A DNA stretch of 64,000 nucleotides from Escherichia coli (GCF_003790525.1 NZ_CP033633.1), one strand, 5' to 3'. Shown: positions 1-10,443, counted from the first letter of the stretch. The notes: generated from the sequence alone by a model not told the origin. Translations and numbers: made by a program.

Positions 1-333
1 TCCGGGACCAAAATTTGGCTGGTTGCCGGTATCACCGATATGAGAAATGGCTTCAACGGCCTGGCTGCGAAAGTACAGACGGCGCTGAAAGACGATCCCA
101 TGTCCGGCCATGTTTTCATTTTCCGGGGCCGCAGCGGCAGTCAGGTTAAACTGCTGTGGTCCACCGGTGACGGACTGTGCCTCCTGACCAAACGGCTGGA
201 GCGTGGGCGCTTCGCCTGGCCGTCAGCCCGTGATGGCAAAGTGTTCCTTACACAGGCGCAGCTGGCGATGCTGCTGGAAGGTATCGACTGGCGACAGCCT
301 AAGCGGCTGCTGACCTCCCTGACCATGCTGTAA
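1..333 (+). CDS. tnpB: IS66-family accessory protein TnpB (orfB), 5' end beyond window
   Basis: Frame open from base 1; translation about 70 percent identical to the TnpB ORF at 58381-58728. Confidence 0.85.
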   Translation, partial: SGTKIWLVAGITDMRNGFNGLAAKVQTALKDDPMSGHVFIFRGRSGSQVKLLWSTGDGLCLLTKRLERGRFAWPSARDGKVFLTQAQLAMLLEGIDWRQPKRLLTSLTML

Positions 334-382
334 ATCTCTTTATCCTGGTTGTCACAGAATAAGCCCGGTAAAATACGGGCTT

Positions 383-1920
383 ATGAACGACATCTCTTCT
401 GACGACATCTTCCTGCTGAAACAGCGCCTGGCCGAACAGGAAGCGCTGATCCACGCCCTGCAGGAAAAGCTGAGCAACCGTGAGCGCGAAATAGACCATC
501 TGCAGGCGCAGCTGGATAAACTCCGCCGGATGAACTTCGGCAGTCGTTCCGAAAAAGTCTCCCGCCGTATCGCACAAATGGAAGCCGATCTGAACCGGCT
601 TCAGAAAGAGAGCGATACGCTGACTGGTAGGGTGTATGACCCGCAGTACAGCGTCCGTTGCGTCAGACCCGCATCCGTAAGCCGTTCCCTGAATCACTAC
701 CCCGTGACGAAAAGCGACTGTTGCCTGCGGCGCCGTGCTGCCCGAACTGCGGCGGTTCACTGAGCTATCTGGGCGAGGATACCGCCGAACAGCTGGAGTT
801 GATGCGTAGCGCCTTCCGGGTTATCCGGACGGTACGGGAAAAACATGCCTGTACTCAGTGCGATGCCATCGTGCAGGCACCTGCACCTTCGCGGCCCATC
901 GAGCGGGGTATCGCCGGACCGGGGCTGCTGGCCCGCGTGCTGACCTCGAAGTATGCAGAGCACACCCCGCTGTATCGCCAGTCAGAAATATACGGCCGGC
1001 AAGGTGTGGAGCTGAGCCGTTCACTGCTGTCGGGCTGGGTGGATGCATGCTGCCGGCTGCTGTCTCCGCTGGAAGAGGCGCTTCATGGCTATGTCATGAC
1101 TGACGGCAAACTCCATGCCGATGATACCCCGGTCCAGGTACTGATGCCGGGTAATAAGAAGACGAAGACCGGGCGGTTGTGGGCGTATGTTCGTGATGAC
1201 CGCAATGCCGGGTCAGCGTTGGCACCTGCAGTGTGGTTCGCTTACAGCCCGGACAGAAAAGGCATCCATCCGCAGACTCATCTTGCTTGCTTCAGCGGTG
1301 TGCTGCAAGCGGATGCGTACGCCGGGTTCAACGAGCTGTATCGCAATGGTGGGATAACGGAAGCTGCCTGCTGGGCTCATGCCCGCCGAAAGATCCACGA
1401 TGTGCACGTCCGCATCCCGTCAGCACTGACGGAAGAAGCCCTGGAGCAGATCGGTCAGTTGTACGCCATAGAGGCGGATATAAGGGGAATGCCGGCAGAG
1501 CAGCGGCTTGCTGAACGTCAGCGAAAAACGAAACCGCTGTTGAAATCCCTGGAAAGCTGGTTGCGTGAAAAGATGAAGACCCTGTCGCGACACTCAGAGT
1601 TGGCGAAGGCGTTCGCGTACGCACTTAACCAGTGGCCGGCACTGACGTACTATGCGAACGATGGCTGGGTGGAAATCGACAACAACATCGCTGAAAATGC
1701 CCTGCGGGCGGTAAGTCTGGGTCGTAAAAACTTCCTGTTCTTCGGCTCTGGCCATGGTGGTGAGCGGGGAGCGCTACTGTACAGCCTGATAGGGACGTGC
1801 AAACTGAATGACGTGGATCCAGAAAGCTACCTTCGCCATGTGCTTGGCGTCATAGCAGACTGGCCGGTCAACCGGGTCAGCGAACTGCTTCCGTGGCGCA
1901 TAGCACTGCCAGCTGAATAA
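383..1920 (+). pseudogene. tnpC: IS66-family transposase TnpC, split by a frameshift near 640-660
   Basis: ORFs 383-763 and 658-1920 together align to the intact 523-aa TnpC at 56790-58361; frame changes after YDPQY. Confidence 0.8.
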
Positions 1921-2058
1921 CACATCCCCGTCAATACGGCCCTCGCTGTACGCTTACTCTCCTACAAGATTATTTAATGGAATGAAAAATATCTGGCCTG
2001 ATAATAATGTTCCAGAATTAATATCTGCAGGCTATGTTAAGTTGTCCCCACACACAAT

Positions 2059-2334
2059 CTACCTGTTTTCTCGTGTGTGCCACAGGCGCAATACATAAAT
2101 AGTCTGGCCATTAAGTTCGTAACGGATTTCGTACTCGCCAGCAAAAATCCGTCTGACCTCCCTGGGTTCAAACTGAAACAACTGTTCTCCCATACGTGGA
2201 TGAGTTAACAGAATGACCGGTGCCTGTGTCAGGGACTGCACCGTTCTGGCGGCCGCAGGTTTACTGGCCAGCACCAGAAAATCATATAACCGCGCCAAAT
2301 CAGAAAGCGCCTTACTGGTCCACTTCAGTTCCAT
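2059..2334 (-). CDS. RelE/ParE-family toxin
   Basis: 91-aa protein with RelE/ParE-like C-terminus (YVLRLWHTRE); start overlaps the stop of the upstream antitoxin ORF. Confidence 0.7.
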   Translation of the reverse strand: MELKWTSKALSDLARLYDFLVLASKPAAARTVQSLTQAPVILLTHPRMGEQLFQFEPREVRRIFAGEYEIRYELNGQTIYVLRLWHTRENR

Positions 2335-2618
2335 CAGCGTGGCACCGGTAACGGATTGTCAGTACTGAGGCTGTCCGCCCAGGCCTGTACAGCCTGATGG
2401 TCGATAACCTGTCCGGATTTCACATCGTCCAGGGCTTCCAGCGTCAGGCGATTACGCTCCTCCTCCTGGGCAAGCCATGCAGAAAGCGCCTGTTTGATAA
2501 CCCAGCCCCGGGAGCGTTCCAGTCTGGCGGCCATCTGGTCGACTTTATCAGCCATTGGTAATGGCACATGCGCGGTAATGACTTTTGTTGCCTGTGCGGT
2601 ATTGTTTTTCATTTGCAT
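2334..2618 (-). CDS. Ribbon-helix-helix (CopG/ParD-like) antitoxin
   Basis: Small ORF immediately upstream of and overlapping the toxin; RHH-like segment. Confidence 0.6.
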   Translation of the reverse strand: MQMKNNTAQATKVITAHVPLPMADKVDQMAARLERSRGWVIKQALSAWLAQEEERNRLTLEALDDVKSGQVIDHQAVQAWADSLSTDNPLPVPR

Positions 2619-3002
2619 ACCCGATTAGTTGTTAATCATATTTAATCATAGTGATTACTTTCAGACGGAACAAGGCAAATAATGCGCGTCAGCGCATGTA
2701 AGGCGGCACTCCGTTGTTGCATATGGCACAGGAGTAAAACCGCCGAAGCCCGGCGTAAGCCGGTACTGATTGATAGATTTCACCTTACCCATCCCCAGCC
2801 CTGCTAAGCCATACCCGCTTTCAGCCATGAGAGAGCTTCTGTGCGCGGTCGGAGTGGTCCCGACGAGGGTTTACCCGAAGTCGGGACGTATCTCCGCGTT
2901 AGCGGGGTCAGTTTGGAATTCGGAAAATAAACCATGTTAAGACTATTTTTTAGCCAAAGGGCTTTCAGGAATCGCCAGAATGGCGGGGCAACAGTGGTTT
3001 TG

Positions 3003-3100
3003 GTGTCCGAAATCGACCTGTTTCGGACATTGTTAAACAGATATATCCGAAAGTCAGCAAAATTACTTTCGGACATGCATTATAATATGTACACCCATTT
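3003..3100. promoter_or_regulatory. Putative res site (resolvase binding subsites)
   Basis: Imperfect palindromes TGTCCGAAA...TTTCGGACA and TCCGAAAGT...ACTTTCGGA directly upstream of the serine recombinase gene. Confidence 0.4.
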
Positions 3101-3118
3101 CGTACAGAAGATCTCACT

Positions 3119-3709
3119 ATGTCTCGAATTTTTGCCTATTGTCGGGTTTCCACTCTGGAACAGACGACCGAAAATCAACGTCGGGAAATCGAAAGCGCGG
3201 GTTTTAACGTCAGACCCCAACGAATAATAGAAGAACAAATTAGTGGATCAGTAGCAGCCAGTGAACGTCCAGGTTTTAACCGGTTGCTTGATCGTCTGGA
3301 AAGTGGCGATGTATTGATAGTCACAAAACTGGATCGCCTCGGTCGTAATGCAATGGATATCAGGAAAACAGTGGAGCAACTGACCGAATCTGGCATCAGG
3401 GTGCATTGCCTGGCATTAGGTGGTGTTGATCTGACCAGTCCGGCAGGAAAAATGACAATGCAAGTGATTTCAGCGGTCGCTGAATTTGAACGAGATCTTT
3501 TACTTGAACGAACTTATTCAGGGATAGCAAGAGCACGGGATGCAGGAAAACGTTTTGGTCGCCCACCGGTATTAAATGAAGAACAAAAACAGAAGGTACT
3601 CGAACGCATTAAGTCTGGGGCAAGTATAAGTGCTATTGCCAGGGAATTCCGAACCACACGGCAAACAATTCTGAGAGTTAGAGCGAAACAGCAAACTGTT
3701 ACTGTATAG
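3119..3709 (+). CDS. Serine recombinase (resolvase/invertase family)
   Basis: 196 aa; N-terminal catalytic motif YCRVST and C-terminal HTH; typical resolvase length. Confidence 0.85.
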
Positions 3710-3722
3710 AAAATAGTCTTAG

Positions 3723-3951
3723 CGTGGGATATTTTCCGTTTTCCAAGCGGACCCCAAGGAAGACTACATCGCGTTCATGCCGAAACCGAATGTAAGAACG
3801 GCATTGCATAATCTTGCAGTGGCGATCGAACATTACAATGAAAACCATCCGCACAGTGCGTTGGGTTATCGCTCTCCGCGAGAATATCGACGTCAGCGGG
3901 TAACATTAACTTAAGATACAACCCCTGTCTGGAAATAAGGGGGCAAGAACA
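3723..3951 (+). pseudogene. IS2-like (IS3 family) transposase C-terminal remnant with right inverted repeat
   Basis: Translation [11 protein letters not shown]...[14 protein letters not shown] matches the C-terminus of IS2 OrfB at 53952-54857; TGTCTGGAAATAAGGGGGCAAGAACA resembles the IS2 right end. Confidence 0.6.
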
Positions 3952-4063
3952 CATTGACACTGTAAATATGGCATTGTATAAAATCCCGCGACGATAATGA
4001 GTTTCATTTGCATTACTCCCATTTGCTGGTCATCCACTCGCCTGTTTACAAGGATAGCGTTTA

Positions 4064-5062
4064 ATGAAGAAGGTCCTTTGCGCGTTAGGCTTGATGTTCA
4101 CCGCCGTCAGTTCCGCGCTGGCAACAACCTACCCCCTGACGATTGAAAACTGCGGCTATCAGGAGACCTTCACCCGGCCGCCGGAGCGCGTGGTCGCGCT
4201 GGGGCAAAATACGGTCGAAATTCTGCTGCTGCTCGGGCTGCAAAAGCAGGTGGTCGCCAGCGCCTTCTGGCCGACCAACGTTTTACCGCAGCTGGCTGAG
4301 CAAAACGCGAAGATTAAAACCTTGACGGTGGAAATTCCGAGCCTGGAATCGGTGCTGGCGCAAAATCCTGATTTCGTTCCCGCCCAGTTGCCGCTGCTGC
4401 TGGGGCCGGAAAGCAAAGTCGCCAGGCGTGAAGATCTCGCCACCGTCGGCGTGAACAGCTACGTCTCACCGGGGGTGTGCGCCACCAAAAAGGCCACCGG
4501 CGATATGTACGGCAGCCGGCAAAAGCTGTGGGATATGACCTGGCTGTATCAGGAAATTAGCGATTTTTCCCGCATTTTCAACGTCGAAGATCGTGGTCAG
4601 GCGCTGATTGCCGATTTCAAAAAACGTGAAGCCGACCTGCGCCAGGAGTTTGGTAAAAGCAAAAAGGATCTCTCCTTCGTCTTCTGGTTCTCCAGCGCCT
4701 CACCTTCGGCCGATGCCTATGTCGGCGGCAAAAACAGCGCCTCCGGATTTATCGCCAGCGTGCTGGGCGGACATAATGCGATTACCTCCGAAACCGAGTG
4801 GCCCACGGTGAGCTGGGAGAGCATTATTGCCGCCAACCCGGATGTGATCGTGGTCGCCAGCCTGGATCGTAACCGCTGGGCGCTGGATAAAGCCGAGGAG
4901 AAGATCAAATTCCTCAAAAGCGATCCCGCCGTCAGCCAGCTGGAGGCGGTGAAAAAAGGCCATATCGTGGTCATGGACGGTCAGGCGATGAATCCGACCA
5001 TTCGCACGCTTTACGGCGCGGAGCAGGTGGGCGAGCAGCTGAGAAAAATGGGGCTGAACTGA
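4064..5062 (+). CDS. ABC transporter periplasmic substrate-binding protein (FecB/FhuD-like, iron-siderophore type)
   Basis: 332 aa with N-terminal signal peptide; first gene of an SBP-permease-ATPase cluster. Confidence 0.7.
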   Translation: MKKVLCALGLMFTAVSSALATTYPLTIENCGYQETFTRPPERVVALGQNTVEILLLLGLQKQVVASAFWPTNVLPQLAEQNAKIKTLTVEIPSLESVLAQNPDFVPAQLPLLLGPESKVARREDLATVGVNSYVSPGVCATKKATGDMYGSRQKLWDMTWLYQEISDFSRIFNVEDRGQALIADFKKREADLRQEFGKSKKDLSFVFWFSSASPSADAYVGGKNSASGFIASVLGGHNAITSETEWPTVSWESIIAANPDVIVVASLDRNRWALDKAEEKIKFLKSDPAVSQLEAVKKGHIVVMDGQAMNPTIRTLYGAEQVGEQLRKMGLN

Positions 5063-6099
5063 TGAGCGTCGGCGCGATTGAGACGTGCCGCAGCATACTG
5101 CTCACCGGCTGGTGTGTACTGGCAGCGATCGTGCTGGCGCTGGTGATCGCTGTGGGCGTCAGCGTTGGCGAGCTGGCCATCCCGCTGCAGAATGTCTTTT
5201 ATGCTATCAGCAACAGAACCGGCTTAACCGCTGAGCCGCTCAACCATATCTATGAGAGCGTTATCTGGGATTTCCGCCTCAGCCGCGCGCTGGTCGCCGC
5301 CTGCTGCGGCGCCGGCCTCGCTATCTGCGGTGTCGTGCTGCAAAGCTTGCTGAAGAATGCCCTCGCCGAACCCTACGTCCTCGGCGTCTCCGCCGGGGCC
5401 TCCACCGGCGCGGTGTCGATCGTGGTGCTGGGCCTTGGCTCTGGCGCAATTTCCCTCTCGGCAGGCGCCTTTGCCGGGGCCTTCGCCGCCTTCGCCTTTG
5501 TCGCCTTGCTGACTAACGGCGCGCGCGGCGGCAATGAGCGTACGATTCTTGCGGGCGTCGCCGCCTCGCAGTTATTTAACGCCATCACGGCCTATACCAT
5601 CAGCACCACCGCCAGCGCGCAGCAGGCGCGCGATGTGATGTTCTGGCTGCTGGGCAGCTTCAGCGGCGTCCGCTGGCCCGAATTCCAGTTGGTCATCGTG
5701 GTGGTGCTCGCGGGTCTGGCGGTCTGCCTGTGGTATGCCCGGGCGCTGGACGCGTTCACCTTCGGCGACGATGCCGCCGCCTCGCTGGGGATTGCTGTGC
5801 CGCGCGTGCGCCTGATCCTCTTCACCACTGCGGCGCTGATCACCGCCACCATCGTCAGCATGGCCGGCTCAATCGGCTTTGTTGGCCTGGTGGTGCCGCA
5901 CGTGATGCGTTTCTTCTTTGGCCCGCTGCACCGAACGTTGCTGATCGCCAGCGCGCTGGCAGGGGCGATATTGATGGTACTGGCGGACATTGCGTCGCGC
6001 CTGCTGATTGCCCCGCAAAGTCTGCCCGTTGGGGTAGTAACCGCCCTGGTTGGGGTGCCTTTCTTTGCCGTGATTATCTACCGCTCAAGGAATAAGTGA
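5062..6099 (+). CDS. ABC transporter permease (FecCD family)
   Basis: 345 aa, hydrophobic multi-helix protein; start overlaps the SBP stop. Confidence 0.8.
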   Translation: MSVGAIETCRSILLTGWCVLAAIVLALVIAVGVSVGELAIPLQNVFYAISNRTGLTAEPLNHIYESVIWDFRLSRALVAACCGAGLAICGVVLQSLLKNALAEPYVLGVSAGASTGAVSIVVLGLGSGAISLSAGAFAGAFAAFAFVALLTNGARGGNERTILAGVAASQLFNAITAYTISTTASAQQARDVMFWLLGSFSGVRWPEFQLVIVVVLAGLAVCLWYARALDAFTFGDDAAASLGIAVPRVRLILFTTAALITATIVSMAGSIGFVGLVVPHVMRFFFGPLHRTLLIASALAGAILMVLADIASRLLIAPQSLPVGVVTALVGVPFFAVIIYRSRNK

Positions 6100-6860
6100 T
6101 GAGTATTTGCGCTGAAAATATCACCTGGAAGGCAGGCAAAAAGGTCATCGTCAATAATGTCTCGCTGCGGGTGCCGCGCGGAGAAACGGTCGGACTGCTG
6201 GGGCCCAACGGCTGCGGCAAATCCTCGCTGCTGCGCGTTCTGGCGGGCCTGCGCCGCCCGGATGCAGGTCGCGTCACCCTCGACGGCCAGGATATCGCCC
6301 GGATGGCGAAAAAGCAGCTCGCCCGCCGCGTGGCTTGCGTCGAGCAACACGGCATGACCGAGGCCAATATGCGGGTGCGCGACGTCGTGCGCCTGGGACG
6401 CATTCCCCACCACTCTCCGTTCTCAAACTGGAGCGCTCAGGATGACGAAGCGATTGCCGCCGCGCTGCAGCGGGTAGCGATGCTGGAGAAAAGCGAACAG
6501 GGATGGTTAAGCCTCTCCGGCGGCGAGCGGCAGCGGGTGCATATCGCCCGCGCGCTGGCGCAGAGCCCGAGCGAAATCCTGCTGGATGAGCCGACCAACC
6601 ATCTGGATATACACCATCAGATGCAGTTAATGCAGTTGATCAGCGAGCTGCCGGTAACCAGCATTGTGGCCATTCACGATCTTAACCATGCCGCGATGTT
6701 CTGCGATTCGCTGATCGTGATGCAGCAGGGGCAGATCCTCGCCAGCGGGACGCCGGAGGAGATTTTGTCCGAAGCGCTGCTGTGGGACGTTTTCCGGGTG
6801 AAAACCAAAATCGAGATCTCCCCTTACCACGGCAAAAAGCACATTCATTTCATCGTTTAG
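6096..6860 (+). CDS. ABC transporter ATP-binding protein
   Basis: Walker A GPNGCGKSS, signature LSGGERQR, Walker B ILLLDEP. Confidence 0.85.
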   Translation: MMSICAENITWKAGKKVIVNNVSLRVPRGETVGLLGPNGCGKSSLLRVLAGLRRPDAGRVTLDGQDIARMAKKQLARRVACVEQHGMTEANMRVRDVVRLGRIPHHSPFSNWSAQDDEAIAAALQRVAMLEKSEQGWLSLSGGERQRVHIARALAQSPSEILLDEPTNHLDIHHQMQLMQLISELPVTSIVAIHDLNHAAMFCDSLIVMQQGQILASGTPEEILSEALLWDVFRVKTKIEISPYHGKKHIHFIV

Positions 6861-6871
6861 GTTGGGCGGAT

Positions 6872-8104
6872 ATGCCTCTTTTCTCCCTGCGCCCTGCGGC
6901 AACCCTCTGGCCTCCGGTGTTACTGGGAAGCCAGTTCGTTTTTAATATTGGCTTTTACGCGGTCGTACCTTTCCTCGCCCTCTTCCTGCGCGACGACATG
7001 CTGCTCTCAGGCGGACTTATCGGCCTGATCCTCGGGCTGCGTACCTTCTCCCAACAGGGGATGTTTATCCTCGGCGGGACGCTGGCCGACCGCTATGGCG
7101 CTAAGGCGATCATTCTCGCCGGCTGCGTCGTTCGCGTCGCCGGTTTTCTCCTGCTGGCGTGCGGGGCGTCGCTGTGGCCCATTATCCTTGGCGCCTGCCT
7201 GACCGGCGTCGGCGGCGCCCTGTTCTCCCCGTCGATAGAGGCCCTGCTGGCGCGGGCCGGTACCCACAGCCAGGCCAACGGGAAACGCAGCCGCGCCGAG
7301 TGGTTTGCGCTGTTTGCGGTATGCGGTGAACTGGGAGCGGTGATCGGCCCGGTGGCCGGAGGCGTGCTGAGCGGGATCGGCTTTCGACATATCGCCCTCG
7401 CCGGCGCGGGAATATTTCTTCTGGCGCTGGCGGTGCTCTTTTTCGGTCTGCCCGCCGACGGGCACACGACAACAACGCGCAGACGAGTCCCATGGTGGAC
7501 GCCTTTGCGCCAGCCGCGCTTTGTCGCGTTTATTCTCGCCTACAGCTCATGGCTGTTGAGCTACAACCAACTCTACCTCGCTCTGCCGGTGGAGATCCAA
7601 CGTTCCGGCGGCCGCGAGCAGGATCTGGCGCCGCTCTTTATGCTGGCCTCGCTGTTGATTATCACCCTCCAGCTCCCTCTCGCCCGCTTCGCCCGGCGAA
7701 TGGGCGCCGTGCGCATCCTGCCGGTGGGCTTTCTGCTGCTGTCGGCTTCCTTTGCCAGCGTGGCGTTATTCGCCGCCGCCCCACCCGCCGAAAGTTGGCT
7801 GCGGTTAATGCCGGCGGCTAGTTTTGTCACGCTGCTCACCCTCGGCCAGATGCTGTTAGTGCCCGCAGCCAAGGATCTGATCCCGCTGTTCGCCGAGGAG
7901 TCGACGCTGGGCGCCCACTACGGAGCGCTCGCCACCGCAGGAGGGTGCGCGGTGTTAGCCGGGAATTTACTGCTCGGTCATTTACTTGACCAGGCGCTCA
8001 TTCCGTCGCCGCAGGCGGTTTATCCCTGGCTTCTGCTGGCGCTGTTTCCGCTGTGCAGCGCCGTCGCCCTGCGGGCGATCTGTCGCCCGCTGGCGGCAAC
8101 ATGA
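6872..8104 (+). CDS. MFS-family transporter
   Basis: About 410 aa, highly hydrophobic; start chosen at the internal ATG 6872 rather than the ORF-track start 6782, which overlaps the ATPase gene. Confidence 0.65.
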   Translation: MPLFSLRPAATLWPPVLLGSQFVFNIGFYAVVPFLALFLRDDMLLSGGLIGLILGLRTFSQQGMFILGGTLADRYGAKAIILAGCVVRVAGFLLLACGASLWPIILGACLTGVGGALFSPSIEALLARAGTHSQANGKRSRAEWFALFAVCGELGAVIGPVAGGVLSGIGFRHIALAGAGIFLLALAVLFFGLPADGHTTTTRRRVPWWTPLRQPRFVAFILAYSSWLLSYNQLYLALPVEIQRSGGREQDLAPLFMLASLLIITLQLPLARFARRMGAVRILPVGFLLLSASFASVALFAAAPPAESWLRLMPAASFVTLLTLGQMLLVPAAKDLIPLFAEESTLGAHYGALATAGGCAVLAGNLLLGHLLDQALIPSPQAVYPWLLLALFPLCSAVALRAICRPLAAT

Positions 8105-8106
8105 CG

Positions 8107-8130
8107 CAGAGCGGGTAACAGCCCGCTCTG
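8107..8130. terminator. Hairpin downstream of the MFS gene
   Basis: CAGAGCGGG-TAACAG-CCCGCTCTG perfect 9-bp stem; no clear T-run. Confidence 0.35.
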
Positions 8131-8181
8131 GAAGTGAACAGCTGGTATCCATATTTTCAGCTAATCCTTTAACAAAGATCC

Positions 8182-8357
8182 TCAGCCCTGTTTAAACCCC
8201 GGCTTGCCGTTTTTGGCTCGCCATTCCTTCACTTCTTTTACGATACCTTCAGGACTGTCCTCACGGTCATCCCTTGGATAATAAATAAGATCAGAACCAT
8301 CAGGGTGTTCAGCTAATCGACGAAATTCATCCACTAATTTATCGTCATCAGCCTCAG
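8182..8357 (-). pseudogene. Colicin DNase-type immunity protein (Im-family) C-terminal fragment, truncated by IS1
   Basis: Minus-strand translation [57 protein letters not shown] matches the conserved C-terminus of E-group colicin immunity proteins; reading frame runs into the IS1 left end. Confidence 0.6.
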
Positions 8358-8412
8358 GGTGATGCTGCCAACTTACTGATTTAGTATATGATGGTGTTTT
8401 TGAGGTGCTCCA

Positions 8413-8688
8413 GTGGCTTCTGTTTCTATCAGCTGTCCCTCCTGTTCAGCTACTGACGGGGTGGTGCGTAACGGCAAAAGCACCGCCGGACATCAGCGCT
8501 ATCTCTGCTCTCACTGCCGTAAAACATGGCAACTGCAGTTCACTTACACCGCTTCTCAACCCGGTACGCACCAGAAAATCATTGATATGGCCATGAATGG
8601 CGTTGGATGCCGGGCAACAGCCCGCATTATGGGCGTTGGCCTCAACACGATTTTACGTCACTTAAAAAACTCAGGCCGCAGTCGGTAA
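8413..8688 (+). CDS. insA: IS1 InsA
   Basis: 91-aa zinc-finger/HTH protein, canonical IS1 InsA sequence. Confidence 0.9.
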
Positions 8689-9110
8689 CCTCGCGCATAC
8701 AGCCGGGCAGTGACGTCATCGTCTGTGCGGAAATGGACGAACAGTGGGGCTATGTCGGGGCTAAATCGCGCCAGCGCTGGCTGTTTTACGCGTATGACAG
8801 GCTCCGGAAGACGGTTGTTGCGCACGTATTCGGTGAACGCACGATGGCGACGCTGGGGCGTCTTATGAGCCTGCTGTCACCCTTTGACGTGGTGATATGG
8901 ATGACGGATGGCTGGCCGCTGTATGAATCCCGCCTGAAGGGAAAGCTGCACGTAATCAGCAAGCGATATACGCAGCGAATTGAGCGGCATAACCTGAATC
9001 TGAGGCAGCACCTGGCACGGCTGGGACGGAAGTCGCTGTCGTTCTCAAAATCGGTGGAGCTGCATGACAAAGTCATCGGGCATTATCTGAACATAAAACA
9101 CTATCAATAA
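8607..9110 (+). CDS. insB: IS1 InsB reading frame (InsAB' by frameshift)
   Basis: 167-aa canonical IS1 InsB. Confidence 0.9.
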
Positions 9111-9125
9111 GTTGGAGTCATTACC

Positions 9126-9320
9126 CGAACTAAAGAGGGGATGGCTGTTGCCCGTTCAAAGGGAAAATTGAAAGGAAAACAGCCTAAATTATCTGAAAAA
9201 CAACAAAAAGAACTATGCCGTATGCGTGATACTGGCCAGTACTCTATCAGCGATCTAGCGGAACTATTTACCGTCTCGCGTGCAACGGTTTATCGAACAC
9301 TTTCACGAGGACAAAAATGA
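9126..9320 (+). pseudogene. Serine recombinase C-terminal (HTH) fragment, truncated by IS1
   Basis: Frame open from the IS1 boundary; ...KEGMAVARSKGKLKGKQPKLSEKQQKEL...VSRATVYRTL resembles a resolvase C-terminus. Confidence 0.6.
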
Positions 9321-9579
9321 CCGATTTAACTACACAGCAACATCTAGTAAAAATTGTCCATGATTATGCCTGCCCTCAAAAGGGTCATGGACAGTCCATC
9401 AAAGGTTCAAATGGATTACATCTGCATTCAATACCCAGATTACTTCCGCTTTGCTAAATGGATAGAACGGTTGGCGTAGGGTATTGTTGATGGTGTAATT
9501 AAAGTTCCTAAAGATCATTAAAATATCAGATCGGAAATTTAGGCGGTTCCGGCGTAGAACCCAGAACCCCTTATCCGAA

Positions 9580-10443
9580 TTATTGTTCAGTTAACTTCAT
9601 TTCGACAAGTAAAGGTAAATGATCTGAGACAGATGCATATGGCTTACTTTCAGGGGTCGCTCTATCTGACGGTTTAGGAATATATACATCTTTAATGTCC
9701 CATTTTTGAGCATTTGATGTAAGTATATAATCAATTTTCCTGTCTGGATTCCATGATGGTGCCGTGTACTTCAATTCCTTATCAGTGTCATTGAACCATG
9801 CTGTTAAATCCAAGTACTCTGTTGATTGAGGTGGTAAATTAAGATCACCCACTATAATTGGAAGTGCATTTTTAAACTGCCAAGAAGAGAATTCTGTTTG
9901 AAGAGTTCTTACTTGCTCTGCTCGTAATGGCTGCGTAGTGAAGTCCAAATGAGTAGTTACTAACATAACAGGCGCAGGATAATTAGGGACATCAACTTCT
10001 ACAGCACAGGCCGCTCTTTGCTCCGCACCTTTGATGTTAGGTAGTTCCATCCTTTTACTCAATTTCAAATCATACTTAGACAGTACTGCTGTACCATATT
10101 CCCCACCATCATGATCTATAGCCTTGCAGAAGTAATAATTCATTCCCAACTTATTAGCTATATACTCTGCTTGATTGACTGGGTTAGAACCCTCTTTACT
10201 AAAGTTCTTACCAGAACGCCCAGTCATGTTATCAACTTCTTGCAGTCCAATAATATCAACATTCATTTTACGAATTGCTTCTACAATGGCATCAGTACTC
10301 CCCATTCTAGAGGCCATTATGTTATATGACCCAACACGAATACTATCGGTATCTGCTGGACCATCCATGAGGCGATCAGAAGCTAAAGTTGAAGAGGAAA
10401 GAACTATAAACCCTATAACCGCAGCAATGCTTGTTAATTTCAT
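9580..10443 (-). CDS. Secreted endonuclease/exonuclease/phosphatase (EEP, DNase I-like) family protein
   Basis: 287 aa, N-terminal signal peptide, EEP-like motifs (GLQEV near N-terminus, SDHLPL near C-terminus); low-GC gene between inverted IS1 copies. Confidence 0.6.
   Translation of the reverse strand: MKLTSIAAVIGFIVLSSSTLASDRLMDGPADTDSIRVGSYNIMASRMGSTDAIVEAIRKMNVDIIGLQEVDNMTGRSGKNFSKEGSNPVNQAEYIANKLGMNYYFCKAIDHDGGEYGTAVLSKYDLKLSKRMELPNIKGAEQRAACAVEVDVPNYPAPVMLVTTHLDFTTQPLRAEQVRTLQTEFSSWQFKNALPIIVGDLNLPPQSTEYLDLTAWFNDTDKELKYTAPSWNPDRKIDYILTSNAQKWDIKDVYIPKPSDRATPESKPYASVSDHLPLLVEMKLTEQ

Follow-up and report, generated by a model that had tools for sequence, protein, structure and literature searches.

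Related importers and identity of the operon

Several type II ABC importers have been described in Escherichia coli K-12, and FhuCDB, FepBDGC, FecBCDE and BtuCDF all combine a Peripla_BP_2 binding protein with a FecCD permease and an ABC ATPase. The iron systems among them are controlled by Fur, and each of the four works with a dedicated TonB-dependent receptor. The Co(II) importer CbtJKL of Sinorhizobium meliloti is a three-component type II system as well, and together with its close relatives it is controlled by a cobalamin riboswitch and often found near cob genes. An operon of the same build with an additional MFS gene has been named eitABCD on virulence plasmids of avian and extraintestinal E. 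coli; its description is about twenty years old, and it is now called a siderophore transporter in the databases.

The window, i.e. the whole 64,000-nucleotide stretch of E. coli DNA analysed here (GCF_003790525.1 NZ_CP033633.1), carries eitABCD at 4064-8104. The eitA PCR primers of an earlier publication (PMC3251573) fit the sequence perfectly, with 0 mismatches, at 4148-4167 (plus strand) and 4523-4542 (minus strand), corresponding to a 395-bp amplicon, and EitA and EitC both exceed the cut-offs of their NCBIfam equivalog models (NF052484, 696 bits vs cut-off 640, and NF052485, 519 bits vs cut-off 485). The order of binding protein, permease, ATPase and MFS gene is that of eit-annotated records. 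The region is 100% identical to plasmid pE16-3 and the operon is the same as those of pAPEC-O2-ColV, pAPEC-O1-ColBM, pChi7122-2 and p1ColV5155 (99.7-100% nucleotide identity; 99.7-99.8% for the region in ColV plasmids such as p1ColV5155), while RefSeq plasmids are 99.3-100% identical and bear, in their newer annotations, the names eitA, eitC and eitD, including "MFS transporter EitD". Among 5,426 complete E. coli genomes, 218 (about 4%) carry eit at 99% identity or more, nearly always on a plasmid, and all 229 E. coli places share at least 99% identity among themselves.

The identity of the operon is thus not new and the value of the annotation as such is small, the locus being a known and widespread virulence-plasmid marker that is scored in APEC/ExPEC typing. 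New are its promoter and Fur box, the chromosomal cassettes lacking receptor and siderophore genes, and the kinship with CbtJ. Taken as a whole, eitABCD very probably encodes a type II ABC importer that is predicted to be repressed by Fur and takes up a metal, either as such or in a small chelate.

Gene content and predicted architecture

Table 1. Features of the eit region, with positions counted from the first nucleotide of the window.
Feature	Position	Strand	Description
ISEc48-like IS3-family remnant	3756-3951	+	Final 196 bp; encodes C-terminal transposase rve_3 part
Putative sigma-70 promoter	3954-3982	+	TTGACA 3954-3959, 17-nt spacer, TATAAA 3977-3982; read from the sequence
Fur-box-like operator (predicted)	3993-4011	.	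GATAATGAGTTTCATTTGC; core palindrome AATGA-N3-TCATT at 3996-4008
eitA	4064-5062	+	Class III periplasmic binding protein, 332 aa, Peripla_BP_2 PF01497 E 9e-29
eitB	5062-6099	+	FecCD-family permease, 345 aa, PF01032 E 4.8e-86
eitC	6099-6860	+	ABC ATPase, 253 aa, ABC_tran PF00005 E 7e-36
eitD	6872-8104	+	MFS transporter, drug/H+ antiporter type, 410 aa, MFS_1 E 1e-30
Hairpin	8107-8130	+	Perfect 9-bp stem CAGAGCGGG-taacag-CCCGCTCTG just 3' of the eitD stop codon
DNase-colicin immunity gene, 3' fragment	8182-8357	-	C-terminal 58 residues; cut by IS1
IS1	8358-9125	+	InsA + InsB ORFs; IS1A in the annotation of the identical plasmid pE16-3

All four genes lie on the plus strand, and the one-base overlaps (TGATG) of eitA with eitB and of eitB with eitC imply translational coupling. 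Their GC content is 61.9% compared with 51.6% in the remaining window, GC3 reaches 73-80%, and the region ranks first among 600 sliding 4-kb windows. A co-directional cluster of a binding protein, a FecCD permease, an ATPase and an MFS transporter with a high GC content had been proposed in the initial annotation, and both the Pfam domains and the composition bear this out; that the operon has long been known under a name of its own had been missed there.

EitA begins with a hydrophobic signal peptide sequence. Its AlphaFold model (pLDDT 88.4) contains a long helix at residues 175-196, which joins two lobes, and its Foldseek matches include class III binding proteins, the best PDB match being 4mlz with a TM-score of 0.82-0.90. 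In the NCBIfam ranking of EitB, TIGR03869 comes top but under its cut-off, followed by BtuC, FhuB and FecCD, and EitC has intact Walker A (GPNGCGKS), signature (LSGGE) and Walker B (ILLDEP) motifs. Judged by the Pfam domains, the intact motifs and the modelled fold of the binding protein, the predicted architecture is that of a type II ABC importer of the BtuCD-F/FhuCDB class.

EitD scores highest against MdtH in NCBIfam (119 bits, under cut-off) and, among PDB sequences, against NorA (E 6e-9). From residue 1-4 onwards, the MFS protein encoded after eitC in Serratia, Pantoea and Kluyvera shares 77-79% identity with EitD. A longer 440-aa reading frame from GTG 6782 was rejected, as it overlaps eitC and as the orthologues of these three genera align from ATG 6872; the start given by PGAP is GTG 6917. 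The hairpin behind eitD is not followed by a T-run and lies beyond the end, at about 8092, of the homology with the eit loci on chromosomes.

Promoter and predicted Fur operator

The putative promoter, which a scan with a mandatory T at position 6 of the -10 hexamer does not return, has counterparts in other genera: TTGAC and GTATAA are invariant upstream of the operon in Serratia, Pantoea and Cronobacter, while the flanks diverge. The predicted Fur box follows the -10 hexamer at a distance of 11 nt, ahead of eitA, and it matches the Fur consensus at 15/19 positions on the minus strand and 14/19 on the plus strand, the top score in the 64-kb window. Genuine K-12 boxes reach similar values by the same scoring (fhuA 14, fepB-entC 15, fepD-entS 16), and the core palindrome occurs a single time in the window against 0.08 occurrences expected. 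Orthologous boxes of 13-14/19 are found in Serratia, S. rubidaea, Pantoea, Kluyvera and Cronobacter, with a degraded one (11/19) on a Raoultella-like contig. Control of eit by Fur is therefore predicted from the operator and its conservation, and the induction of eitD reported in infected chickens (RIVET, PMC8069529) is indirect evidence for it. The arrangement would be that of a single promoter with a Fur operator overlapping just downstream, from which repression at plentiful iron and expression in iron starvation, e.g. in host tissues, would be expected.

The siderophore label

Given this predicted Fur box, which Eit would have in common with the iron importers of K-12, Eit could be a classical importer of ferric siderophores or xenosiderophores, whereby an unlinked TonB-dependent receptor delivers the substrate and EitD moves the siderophore out of or into the cell. 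Such a function is in line with the NCBIfam equivalogs, which carry the name "siderophore ABC transporter EitA/EitC", with the class III binding-protein fold, common to many siderophore binders, and with the presence of eit on ColV/ColBM plasmids that also carry the aerobactin, salmochelin and Sit systems, as well as on Cronobacter pESA3, which has iucABCD/iutA. In addition, MFS genes in Fur-controlled operons often encode siderophore exporters, e.g. EntS.

On the other hand, EitD resembles EntS weakly (E 2e-5), and no gene for a TonB-dependent receptor or for siderophore biosynthesis is present within 5-10 kb at any of nine loci checked (0/9), i.e. the window and eight related loci, seven of the nine being enterobacterial and two the closest alphaproteobacterial ones. 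The four K-12 systems each have such a receptor, which Eit lacks, and EitA is barely alignable with their binding proteins: comparisons with FhuD, FepB, FecB and BtuF give partial alignments with E values of 3e-5 to 0.09 (at least 0.005 for FhuD, FepB and FecB), and the NCBIfam FecB and FepB models score EitA at 25-31 bits. A phylogeny of the binding protein against characterised families had been named as a check in the initial annotation, and in a tree of this kind EitA is separated from the FhuD/FepB/FecB clade with 100% bootstrap. In the only functional tests reported, the eit-bearing plasmid pChi7122-2 showed no iron phenotype, either on CAS agar or in growth with dipyridyl alone or supplemented with FeSO4, haem or haemoglobin (PMC3251573), and no report naming a siderophore, or any other substrate of Eit, was found in the literature. 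The sequence context gives this alternative no support, and we regard it as rather unlikely; the siderophore label of Eit is unproven.

Kinship with the cobalt importer CbtJKL

By sequence comparison, the nearest experimentally characterised relative of EitA is CbtJ, encoded on S. meliloti pSymB, with 43% identity over the full length (E 2.5e-97). The pSymB locus compared here was taken to be cbtJKL, being the sole EitA-like match on pSymB, with a riboswitch and near repA. In a neighbour-joining tree, the Eit proteins form a clade with 100% bootstrap, whose sister group is the CbtJ clade with its riboswitches (bootstrap of their union 93%), and the motifs TYPLT-ENCG, FWFSS, EWPTVxWE and MNPTIRT are common to both. 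Clustering with a non-metal family was not observed; the sole non-metal neighbour is the group TIGR03868/69/73, under whose cut-offs the three Eit ABC proteins remain. Thus, where metal or siderophore uptake had been suggested in the initial annotation, the metal side is supported by the conserved Fur box and the CbtJKL kinship, and the siderophore side is left without support from the sequence context.

This kinship raises the question of whether Eit is the functional equivalent of CbtJKL, a cobalt importer with only its regulator changed. Besides the full-length identity, the sister-clade position and the common motifs, it would be favoured by the cobalamin riboswitch found in 5/5 alphaproteobacterial homologues at 40-45% identity (100-119 bits), some of them beside cob genes, and by the label "cbtJKL" given through automatic annotation to plasmid clusters in Cronobacter and Klebsiella papers. 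However, positions 2500-9500 of the window yielded no cobalamin riboswitch even at E values up to 1, and scans at the gathering threshold were equally negative for three loci of enterobacteria and for the alphaproteobacterial ones with 57-65% identity. Eit differs from CbtJKL and its close relatives by the apparent control by Fur instead and by the extra MFS gene. Moreover, the Eit and CbtJ clades are set apart at 30 alignment positions and, consequently, the cobalt specificity is not transferable to Eit. E. coli does not synthesise cobalamin de novo, and a cobalt uptake de-repressed in iron starvation would be harmful. Import of cobalt as the function of Eit is accordingly judged improbable. 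Neither clade shows a conserved His or free Cys of the kind expected at a site for a bare metal, so a chelate is equally possible as the substrate.

An organic cofactor, such as a deazaflavin (F420-0/FO) or a corrinoid, was considered as a non-metal cargo. The "putative F420-0 ABC transporter" models TIGR03868/69/73 are the next-best curated family for EitA, EitB and EitC (174, 284 and 283 bits); 4mlz, likely the structural representative of that family and the top structural neighbour of EitA, is an uncharacterised actinobacterial binding protein, and many Trp and Tyr residues are invariant. These scores nevertheless stay far under the cut-offs of 392, 437 and 372, the function of the family is itself hypothesised ("hypoth_equivalog"), and its members belong to another phylum, the Actinobacteria, and have no MFS partner. 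The predicted Fur box indicates metal homeostasis, and we know of no use of F420 in enterobacteria. All in all, a cofactor importer appears extremely improbable.

Mobile context and origin of the cassette

On its left side, the operon is preceded by an IS remnant whose outer end abuts the eit promoter. An IS2-like remnant had been noted there in the initial annotation, which is roughly right as to the IS3 family; the transposase fragment (Pfam rve_3 E 6.5e-9) is, by tblastn, closer to ISEc48 (87%) than to IS2 (65%), and the remnant has 98% nucleotide identity with ISEc48 in an E. albertii plasmid. The span of 3723-8104 given there fits the end of eitD, whereas its start falls inside a Tn21-type 38-bp inverted repeat (3718-3755), part of another element and not of the ISEc48 remnant. 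On the right side, the colicin-immunity fragment and IS1 are located as had been described: the fragment matches Colicin_Pyocin PF01320 at profile positions 28-82 of 82 (E 4.9e-26), the gene is intact in p1ColV5155, identity with that plasmid stops at 8357, and IS1 forms the right edge of the shared eit block. APEC/ExPEC eit plasmids agree with the window in gene order, primer match, flanking ISEc48 remnant and colicin-immunity gene. The differences are the IS1-cut immunity gene and the host plasmid, which is here of IncK2/Z type with ColBM remnants and identical to pE16-3, instead of an IncF ColV/ColBM plasmid.

The cassette is chromosomal in Serratia, Pantoea dispersa, a Raoultella-like strain and Kluyvera. 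The proteins of the chromosomal and Cronobacter loci share 77-89% (EitA) and 70-79% (EitD) amino acid identity with those of the window, and the promoter is common to them. These loci are, however, only 76-81% identical to the window in nucleotides and, therefore, none of them is the direct donor. Further differences are the order eitCBAD with a divergently transcribed MFS gene on pESA3-type plasmids of Cronobacter and the lack of eitD in S. rubidaea. Homology to the chromosomal cassettes of other Enterobacterales (77-81% nucleotide identity) begins at 3950-3954, right at the end of the IS. This starting point, the neighbours of the cassette, unrelated from genus to genus, and the identity of at least 99% among E. 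coli copies suggest a single capture from the chromosome of an environmental enterobacterium, which agrees with the import from elsewhere that had been proposed. From there, the cassette would have spread through the plasmids of E. coli as a fixed unit comprising a mini-Tn3-family element, the ISEc48 remnant, eitABCD and the colicin immunity gene.

In such a mosaic, the operon could also be a functionless passenger in E. coli, hitch-hiking with the IS elements and kept through linkage to other plasmid genes, as the surrounding IS and Tn debris, the experiments without phenotype and the presence in only about 4% of complete genomes might indicate. Against this stand the intact state of promoter, operator and all four reading frames, the conserved ATPase motifs, the persistence of the same block on backbones as different as IncF, IncK2/Z and Klebsiella plasmids, and the reported in vivo induction of eitD. 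A mere passenger is thus considered very unlikely.

Proposed function of Eit

In the proposed mechanism, EitA would be exported to the periplasm, capture the substrate there and dock on a dimer of the FecCD-type permease EitB joined to a dimer of the ATPase EitC, in the manner of BtuCD-F and FhuCDB, and ATP hydrolysis would drive the substrate into the cytoplasm. EitD, a 12-helix DHA1-like MFS protein, is a lineage-specific add-on; neither S. rubidaea nor the alphaproteobacterial relatives have it, which implies that it is dispensable for import. Going by family resemblance alone, EitD is most likely an exporter, whether of a small ligand or of substrate in excess, which is a guess. The cargo of the ABC importer is most likely a metal, either as an ion or in a small chelate, whose passage through the outer membrane needs no dedicated TonB-dependent receptor. 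Iron would be favoured by the predicted Fur control, Co2+ or Mn2+ would be possible by the kinship with CbtJKL, and a classical ferric siderophore is less likely. Points that speak against this overall reading are the missing iron phenotype of pChi7122-2, the degraded box on the Raoultella-like contig and the cobalt, instead of iron, transported by the nearest characterised relative.

More specifically, it is tentatively proposed that Eit is a Fur-controlled branch of the CbtJKL family for the receptor-independent uptake of a divalent metal, free or in a weak chelate (Fe2+, possibly Mn2+ or Co2+), and that EitD serves as an efflux partner. The riboswitch-bearing branch would then bring in Co2+ for cobalamin synthesis, and the Eit branch would have been rewired to respond to iron starvation. 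If this proposal is true, the negative tests with CAS, haem and haemoglobin would be explained and the current database name would be wrong. Taken together, a cobalt importer as a relative, loci that lack receptor and siderophore genes and a conserved Fur box make the function of this often-scored "iron gene" cheaply testable.

Identity and distribution of the eit operon

The four co-directional genes proposed in the initial annotation, encoding a binding protein, a FecCD-type permease, an ATPase and an MFS transporter, are all present on the plus strand with Pfam support (see table), and the locus is the eitABCD operon. The eitA PCR primers from PMC3251573 were placed with 0 mismatches at 4148-4167 and 4523-4542, EitA and EitC scored above the curated cut-offs of their NCBIfam equivalogs (NF052484, 696 bits, cut-off 640; NF052485, 519 bits, cut-off 485), and the gene labels eitA, eitC and eitD are used by recent RefSeq annotation. 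The operon was first described on APEC ColV/ColBM plasmids and figures in the literature as a 'putative iron transporter' and virulence marker; no functional study of its substrate was found in literature searches on eitABCD, eitCBAD, EitA-siderophore, eitD-MFS and expression.

At both the eitA/eitB and eitB/eitC junctions stop and start codons have one base in common (TGATG), implying translational coupling, and eitC and eitD are separated by 11 nt. The GC content of eitA-D is 61.9% (GC3 73-80%) compared with 51.6% for the remainder of the window and the block has the highest GC among 600 sliding 4-kb windows, consistent with the earlier description of a segment markedly richer in GC than the backbone. 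EitD is a DHA1-type MFS whose best matches were MdtH and NorA, both under family thresholds.

Window positions 3700-8200 are 100% identical to pE16-3 (IncK2/Z), a plasmid of chicken E. coli, and 99.8% identical to classical ColV plasmids, e.g. p1ColV5155. Carriage of eit was recorded in 218 of 5,426 complete E. coli genomes, every copy being at least 99% identical, with 224 of the 229 eit places on plasmids. The conjugative IncK2/Z backbone of pE16-3 also bears the ColBM remnants cma, cmi and cbi, so the eit block has left the IncF ColV/ColBM plasmids that normally carry it. The finding is real and was correctly described, and it was already known.

Features of the eit block and its surroundings (window coordinates)
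Feature	Coordinates	Strand	Remarks
IS66-family (ISEc8-like) tnpB/tnpC	40-1920		Upstream of eit block
ParE toxin and ribbon-helix-helix antitoxin	2059-2618	minus	After tnpB/tnpC, upstream of eit block
852-bp unit	2904-3755		Two Tn21-type 38-bp inverted repeats
Lone serine recombinase gene	3119-3709		Within the 852-bp unit
ISEc48 (IS3-family) remnant	3756-3951		98% identity to final 196 bp of ISEc48
eitA	4064-5062	plus	Periplasmic binding protein; Peripla_BP_2, E 9e-29
eitB	5062-6099	plus	Permease; FecCD, E 5e-86
eitC	6099-6860	plus	ABC ATPase; ABC_tran, E 7e-36; Walker A, signature and Walker B all intact
eitD	6872-8104	plus	MFS transporter; MFS_1, E 1e-30
Hairpin	8107-8130		Directly 3' of eitD stop codon
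DNase-colicin immunity fragment	8182-8357	minus	C-terminal 58 residues; PF01320, E 5e-26
IS1, first copy	8358-9125		Cuts immunity gene
Endonuclease/exonuclease/phosphatase-family gene	9580-10443	minus	N-terminal signal sequence; between both IS1 copies
IS1, second copy	10610-11377		Inverted relative to first copy
Cytochrome b562-like gene	11553-11960	minus	So annotated in identical plasmid pE16-3
528-aa ORF	12327-13913	minus	Without listed annotation in PLSDB gene table of identical plasmid

Boundaries of the eit block

The insertion sequence remnant noted on the left exists and its description as IS2-like was roughly right, its encoded fragment being 87% identical to the transposase of ISEc48 and 65% to that of IS2. 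The end of the remnant abuts the eit promoter, and similarity to the chromosomal eit cassettes of other genera extends from 3950-3954 to near 8092. Directly left of the remnant lies the 852-bp unit, whose repeats match the Tn21 inverted repeat at 28/38 and 31/38 positions and each other at 30/38; neither a transposase nor a 5-bp target duplication was found for this unit. Tn21-type inverted repeats are a known target of IS5075, and in the sister plasmid pPK8275-145kb an IS5075 is inserted in the right repeat, at window-equivalent position 3735. Simple insertion of this unit, as a mini-Tn3-family element, into ISEc48 was rejected for want of that duplication and because the left flank is plasmid backbone, not ISEc48.

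On the right, the colicin-immunity fragment and the IS1 named in the initial annotation were both recovered. The immunity gene is intact in p1ColV5155, whose identity with the window spans exactly 2801-8357. After eitD, a perfect 9-bp hairpin, CAGAGCGGG-taacag-CCCGCTCTG, lies beyond the segment similar to chromosomal eit loci and has no T-run. The two IS1 copies (764/768 identical) flank 1,484 bp at 38% GC, and the whole unit, 8358-11377, looks like a composite transposon. The cytochrome b562-like gene, an odd plasmid cargo, is within a patch of 28-37% GC.

Putative promoter and Fur operator

Upstream of eitA, direct reading identified TTGACA (3954-3959), a 17-nt spacer and TATAAA. This promoter was missed by a generic scan demanding a T as the sixth base of the -10 hexamer, and the call is therefore based on direct reading and conservation. 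A candidate Fur box, GATAATGAGTTTCATTTGC (3993-4011), begins 11 bases past TATAAA and agrees with the 19-bp Fur consensus at 15/19 positions when read on one strand and at 14/19 when read on its complement, which is the top score in the 64-kb window and inside the range obtained by the same scoring for K-12 Fur boxes (fhuA 14, fepB-entC 15, fepD-entS 16). The window contains a single copy of the box's core palindrome, AATGA-N3-TCATT, where 0.08 would be expected. When the regions upstream of orthologous operons are aligned, both promoter hexamers and the operator are kept while the flanks have diverged. The box scores 13-14/19 at the orthologous loci of Serratia, S. rubidaea, Pantoea, Kluyvera and Cronobacter; one Raoultella-like contig reaches 11/19. 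Taken together, the box score, the unique palindrome and the orthologue conservation make the predicted Fur repression of eit well supported computationally. Control by an RNA element was rejected, since an Rfam scan of 2500-9500 (E up to 1) gave no riboswitch or other element in the eit leader and its sole match was a chance one inside eitC.

Relatives of eit in other genera

Chromosomal EitA orthologues of 83-89% identity were found in Serratia, Pantoea, Raoultella, Kluyvera, Lelliottia, Kosakonia and others. The five loci inspected consist of a three- or four-gene cassette amid unrelated neighbours, and no TonB-dependent receptor or siderophore synthesis genes were found beside the cassette in any of the five. 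The MFS gene is divergent in Cronobacter and missing in S. rubidaea. Nucleotide identity with E. coli eit is only 76-81%, and 77-81% for the best chromosomal loci; consequently, the sampled loci were rejected as direct donors.

Kinship and structure of EitA

With K-12 proteins, EitA gave partial alignments to BtuF (E 3e-5), FepB (E 0.005), FecB (E 0.006) and FhuD (E 0.09), whereas a binding protein encoded on S. meliloti pSymB aligned over its full length at 43% identity (E 2.5e-97). The gene of the latter lies near repA, downstream of a cobalamin riboswitch, and from this location, the riboswitch and its uniqueness on pSymB we infer that the locus is cbtJKL, described in PMC7689651 and PMC11009365 as an ABC-type importer of Co(II) that is controlled by an adenosylcobalamin riboswitch. 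A cobalamin riboswitch (100-119 bits) is directly upstream of 5/5 alphaproteobacterial homologues at 40-45% identity, some of which adjoin cob genes. None was detected at the 57-65% identical homologues of R. johnstonii pRL12 and Qingshengfaniella or at the scanned enterobacterial loci; upstream of these two alphaproteobacterial genes there was also no Fur-like box (9-11/19) and no RirA or Irr motif recognised by eye.

The phylogenetic comparison with characterised families that had been proposed as a check was made with a neighbour-joining (distance) tree of few taxa and 100 bootstraps, in which the Eit clade (100%) is sister to the CbtJ clade (union 93%), both being set apart from FhuD, FepB, FecB and BtuF at 100%. 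The Eit clade differs from the CbtJ clade at thirty alignment positions, and both lack a conserved His, so that CbtJ specificity is not transferable to Eit. The reading of Eit as a cobalt importer as such is judged quite improbable. The next-best curated HMM family was a hypothetical actinobacterial 'F420-0' transporter, with all three Eit proteins far under its cut-offs. The AlphaFold model of EitA (pLDDT 88.4) has a class III binding-protein fold; its nearest PDB structures (4mlz, 4n01, 5cr9, 4ljs) are all uncharacterised structural-genomics entries, and haem, molybdate, siderophore and B12 binders rank next at similar lower scores, hence the structure gives no substrate inference.

More distant transporters of the Eit/CbtJ family also occur in suggestive settings: on a plasmid of Rhodococcus sp. 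M8-35 from nitrile-contaminated soil (7905-10833), between aliphatic amidase and acetamidase genes, and on a plasmid of the cyanobacterium Trichormus (1-8880, 11503-12452), behind TonB-dependent receptors. Some 2.6 kb downstream of the Trichormus transporter is a cobalamin riboswitch, followed by a DUF1636 gene.

Proposed function of Eit

In the predicted mechanism, Fur would leave the eit promoter under iron limitation, secreted EitA would capture its substrate in the periplasm and EitB2C2 would bring it in at the expense of ATP, EitD being accessory and probably an exporter. The kinship with CbtJKL suggests that the cargo is a metal ion or a small chelate able to pass porins; the Fur box favours iron, with Co2+ and Mn2+ possible. 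Uptake of a free or weakly chelated divalent metal is put forward tentatively, as a reading that may well prove wrong. That Eit is a true siderophore transporter is considered unlikely: no receptor or biosynthesis gene is linked to eit at any locus examined, EitA is far from the siderophore binders, and the eit-bearing plasmid pChi7122-2 conferred no phenotype on CAS agar or in medium with dipyridyl, whether or not FeSO4, haem or haemoglobin was added (PMC3251573).

The remaining value of the analysis lies in a testable proposal, namely that the name 'siderophore ABC transporter' given to Eit in databases lacks support and that Eit is a member of the CbtJKL family.
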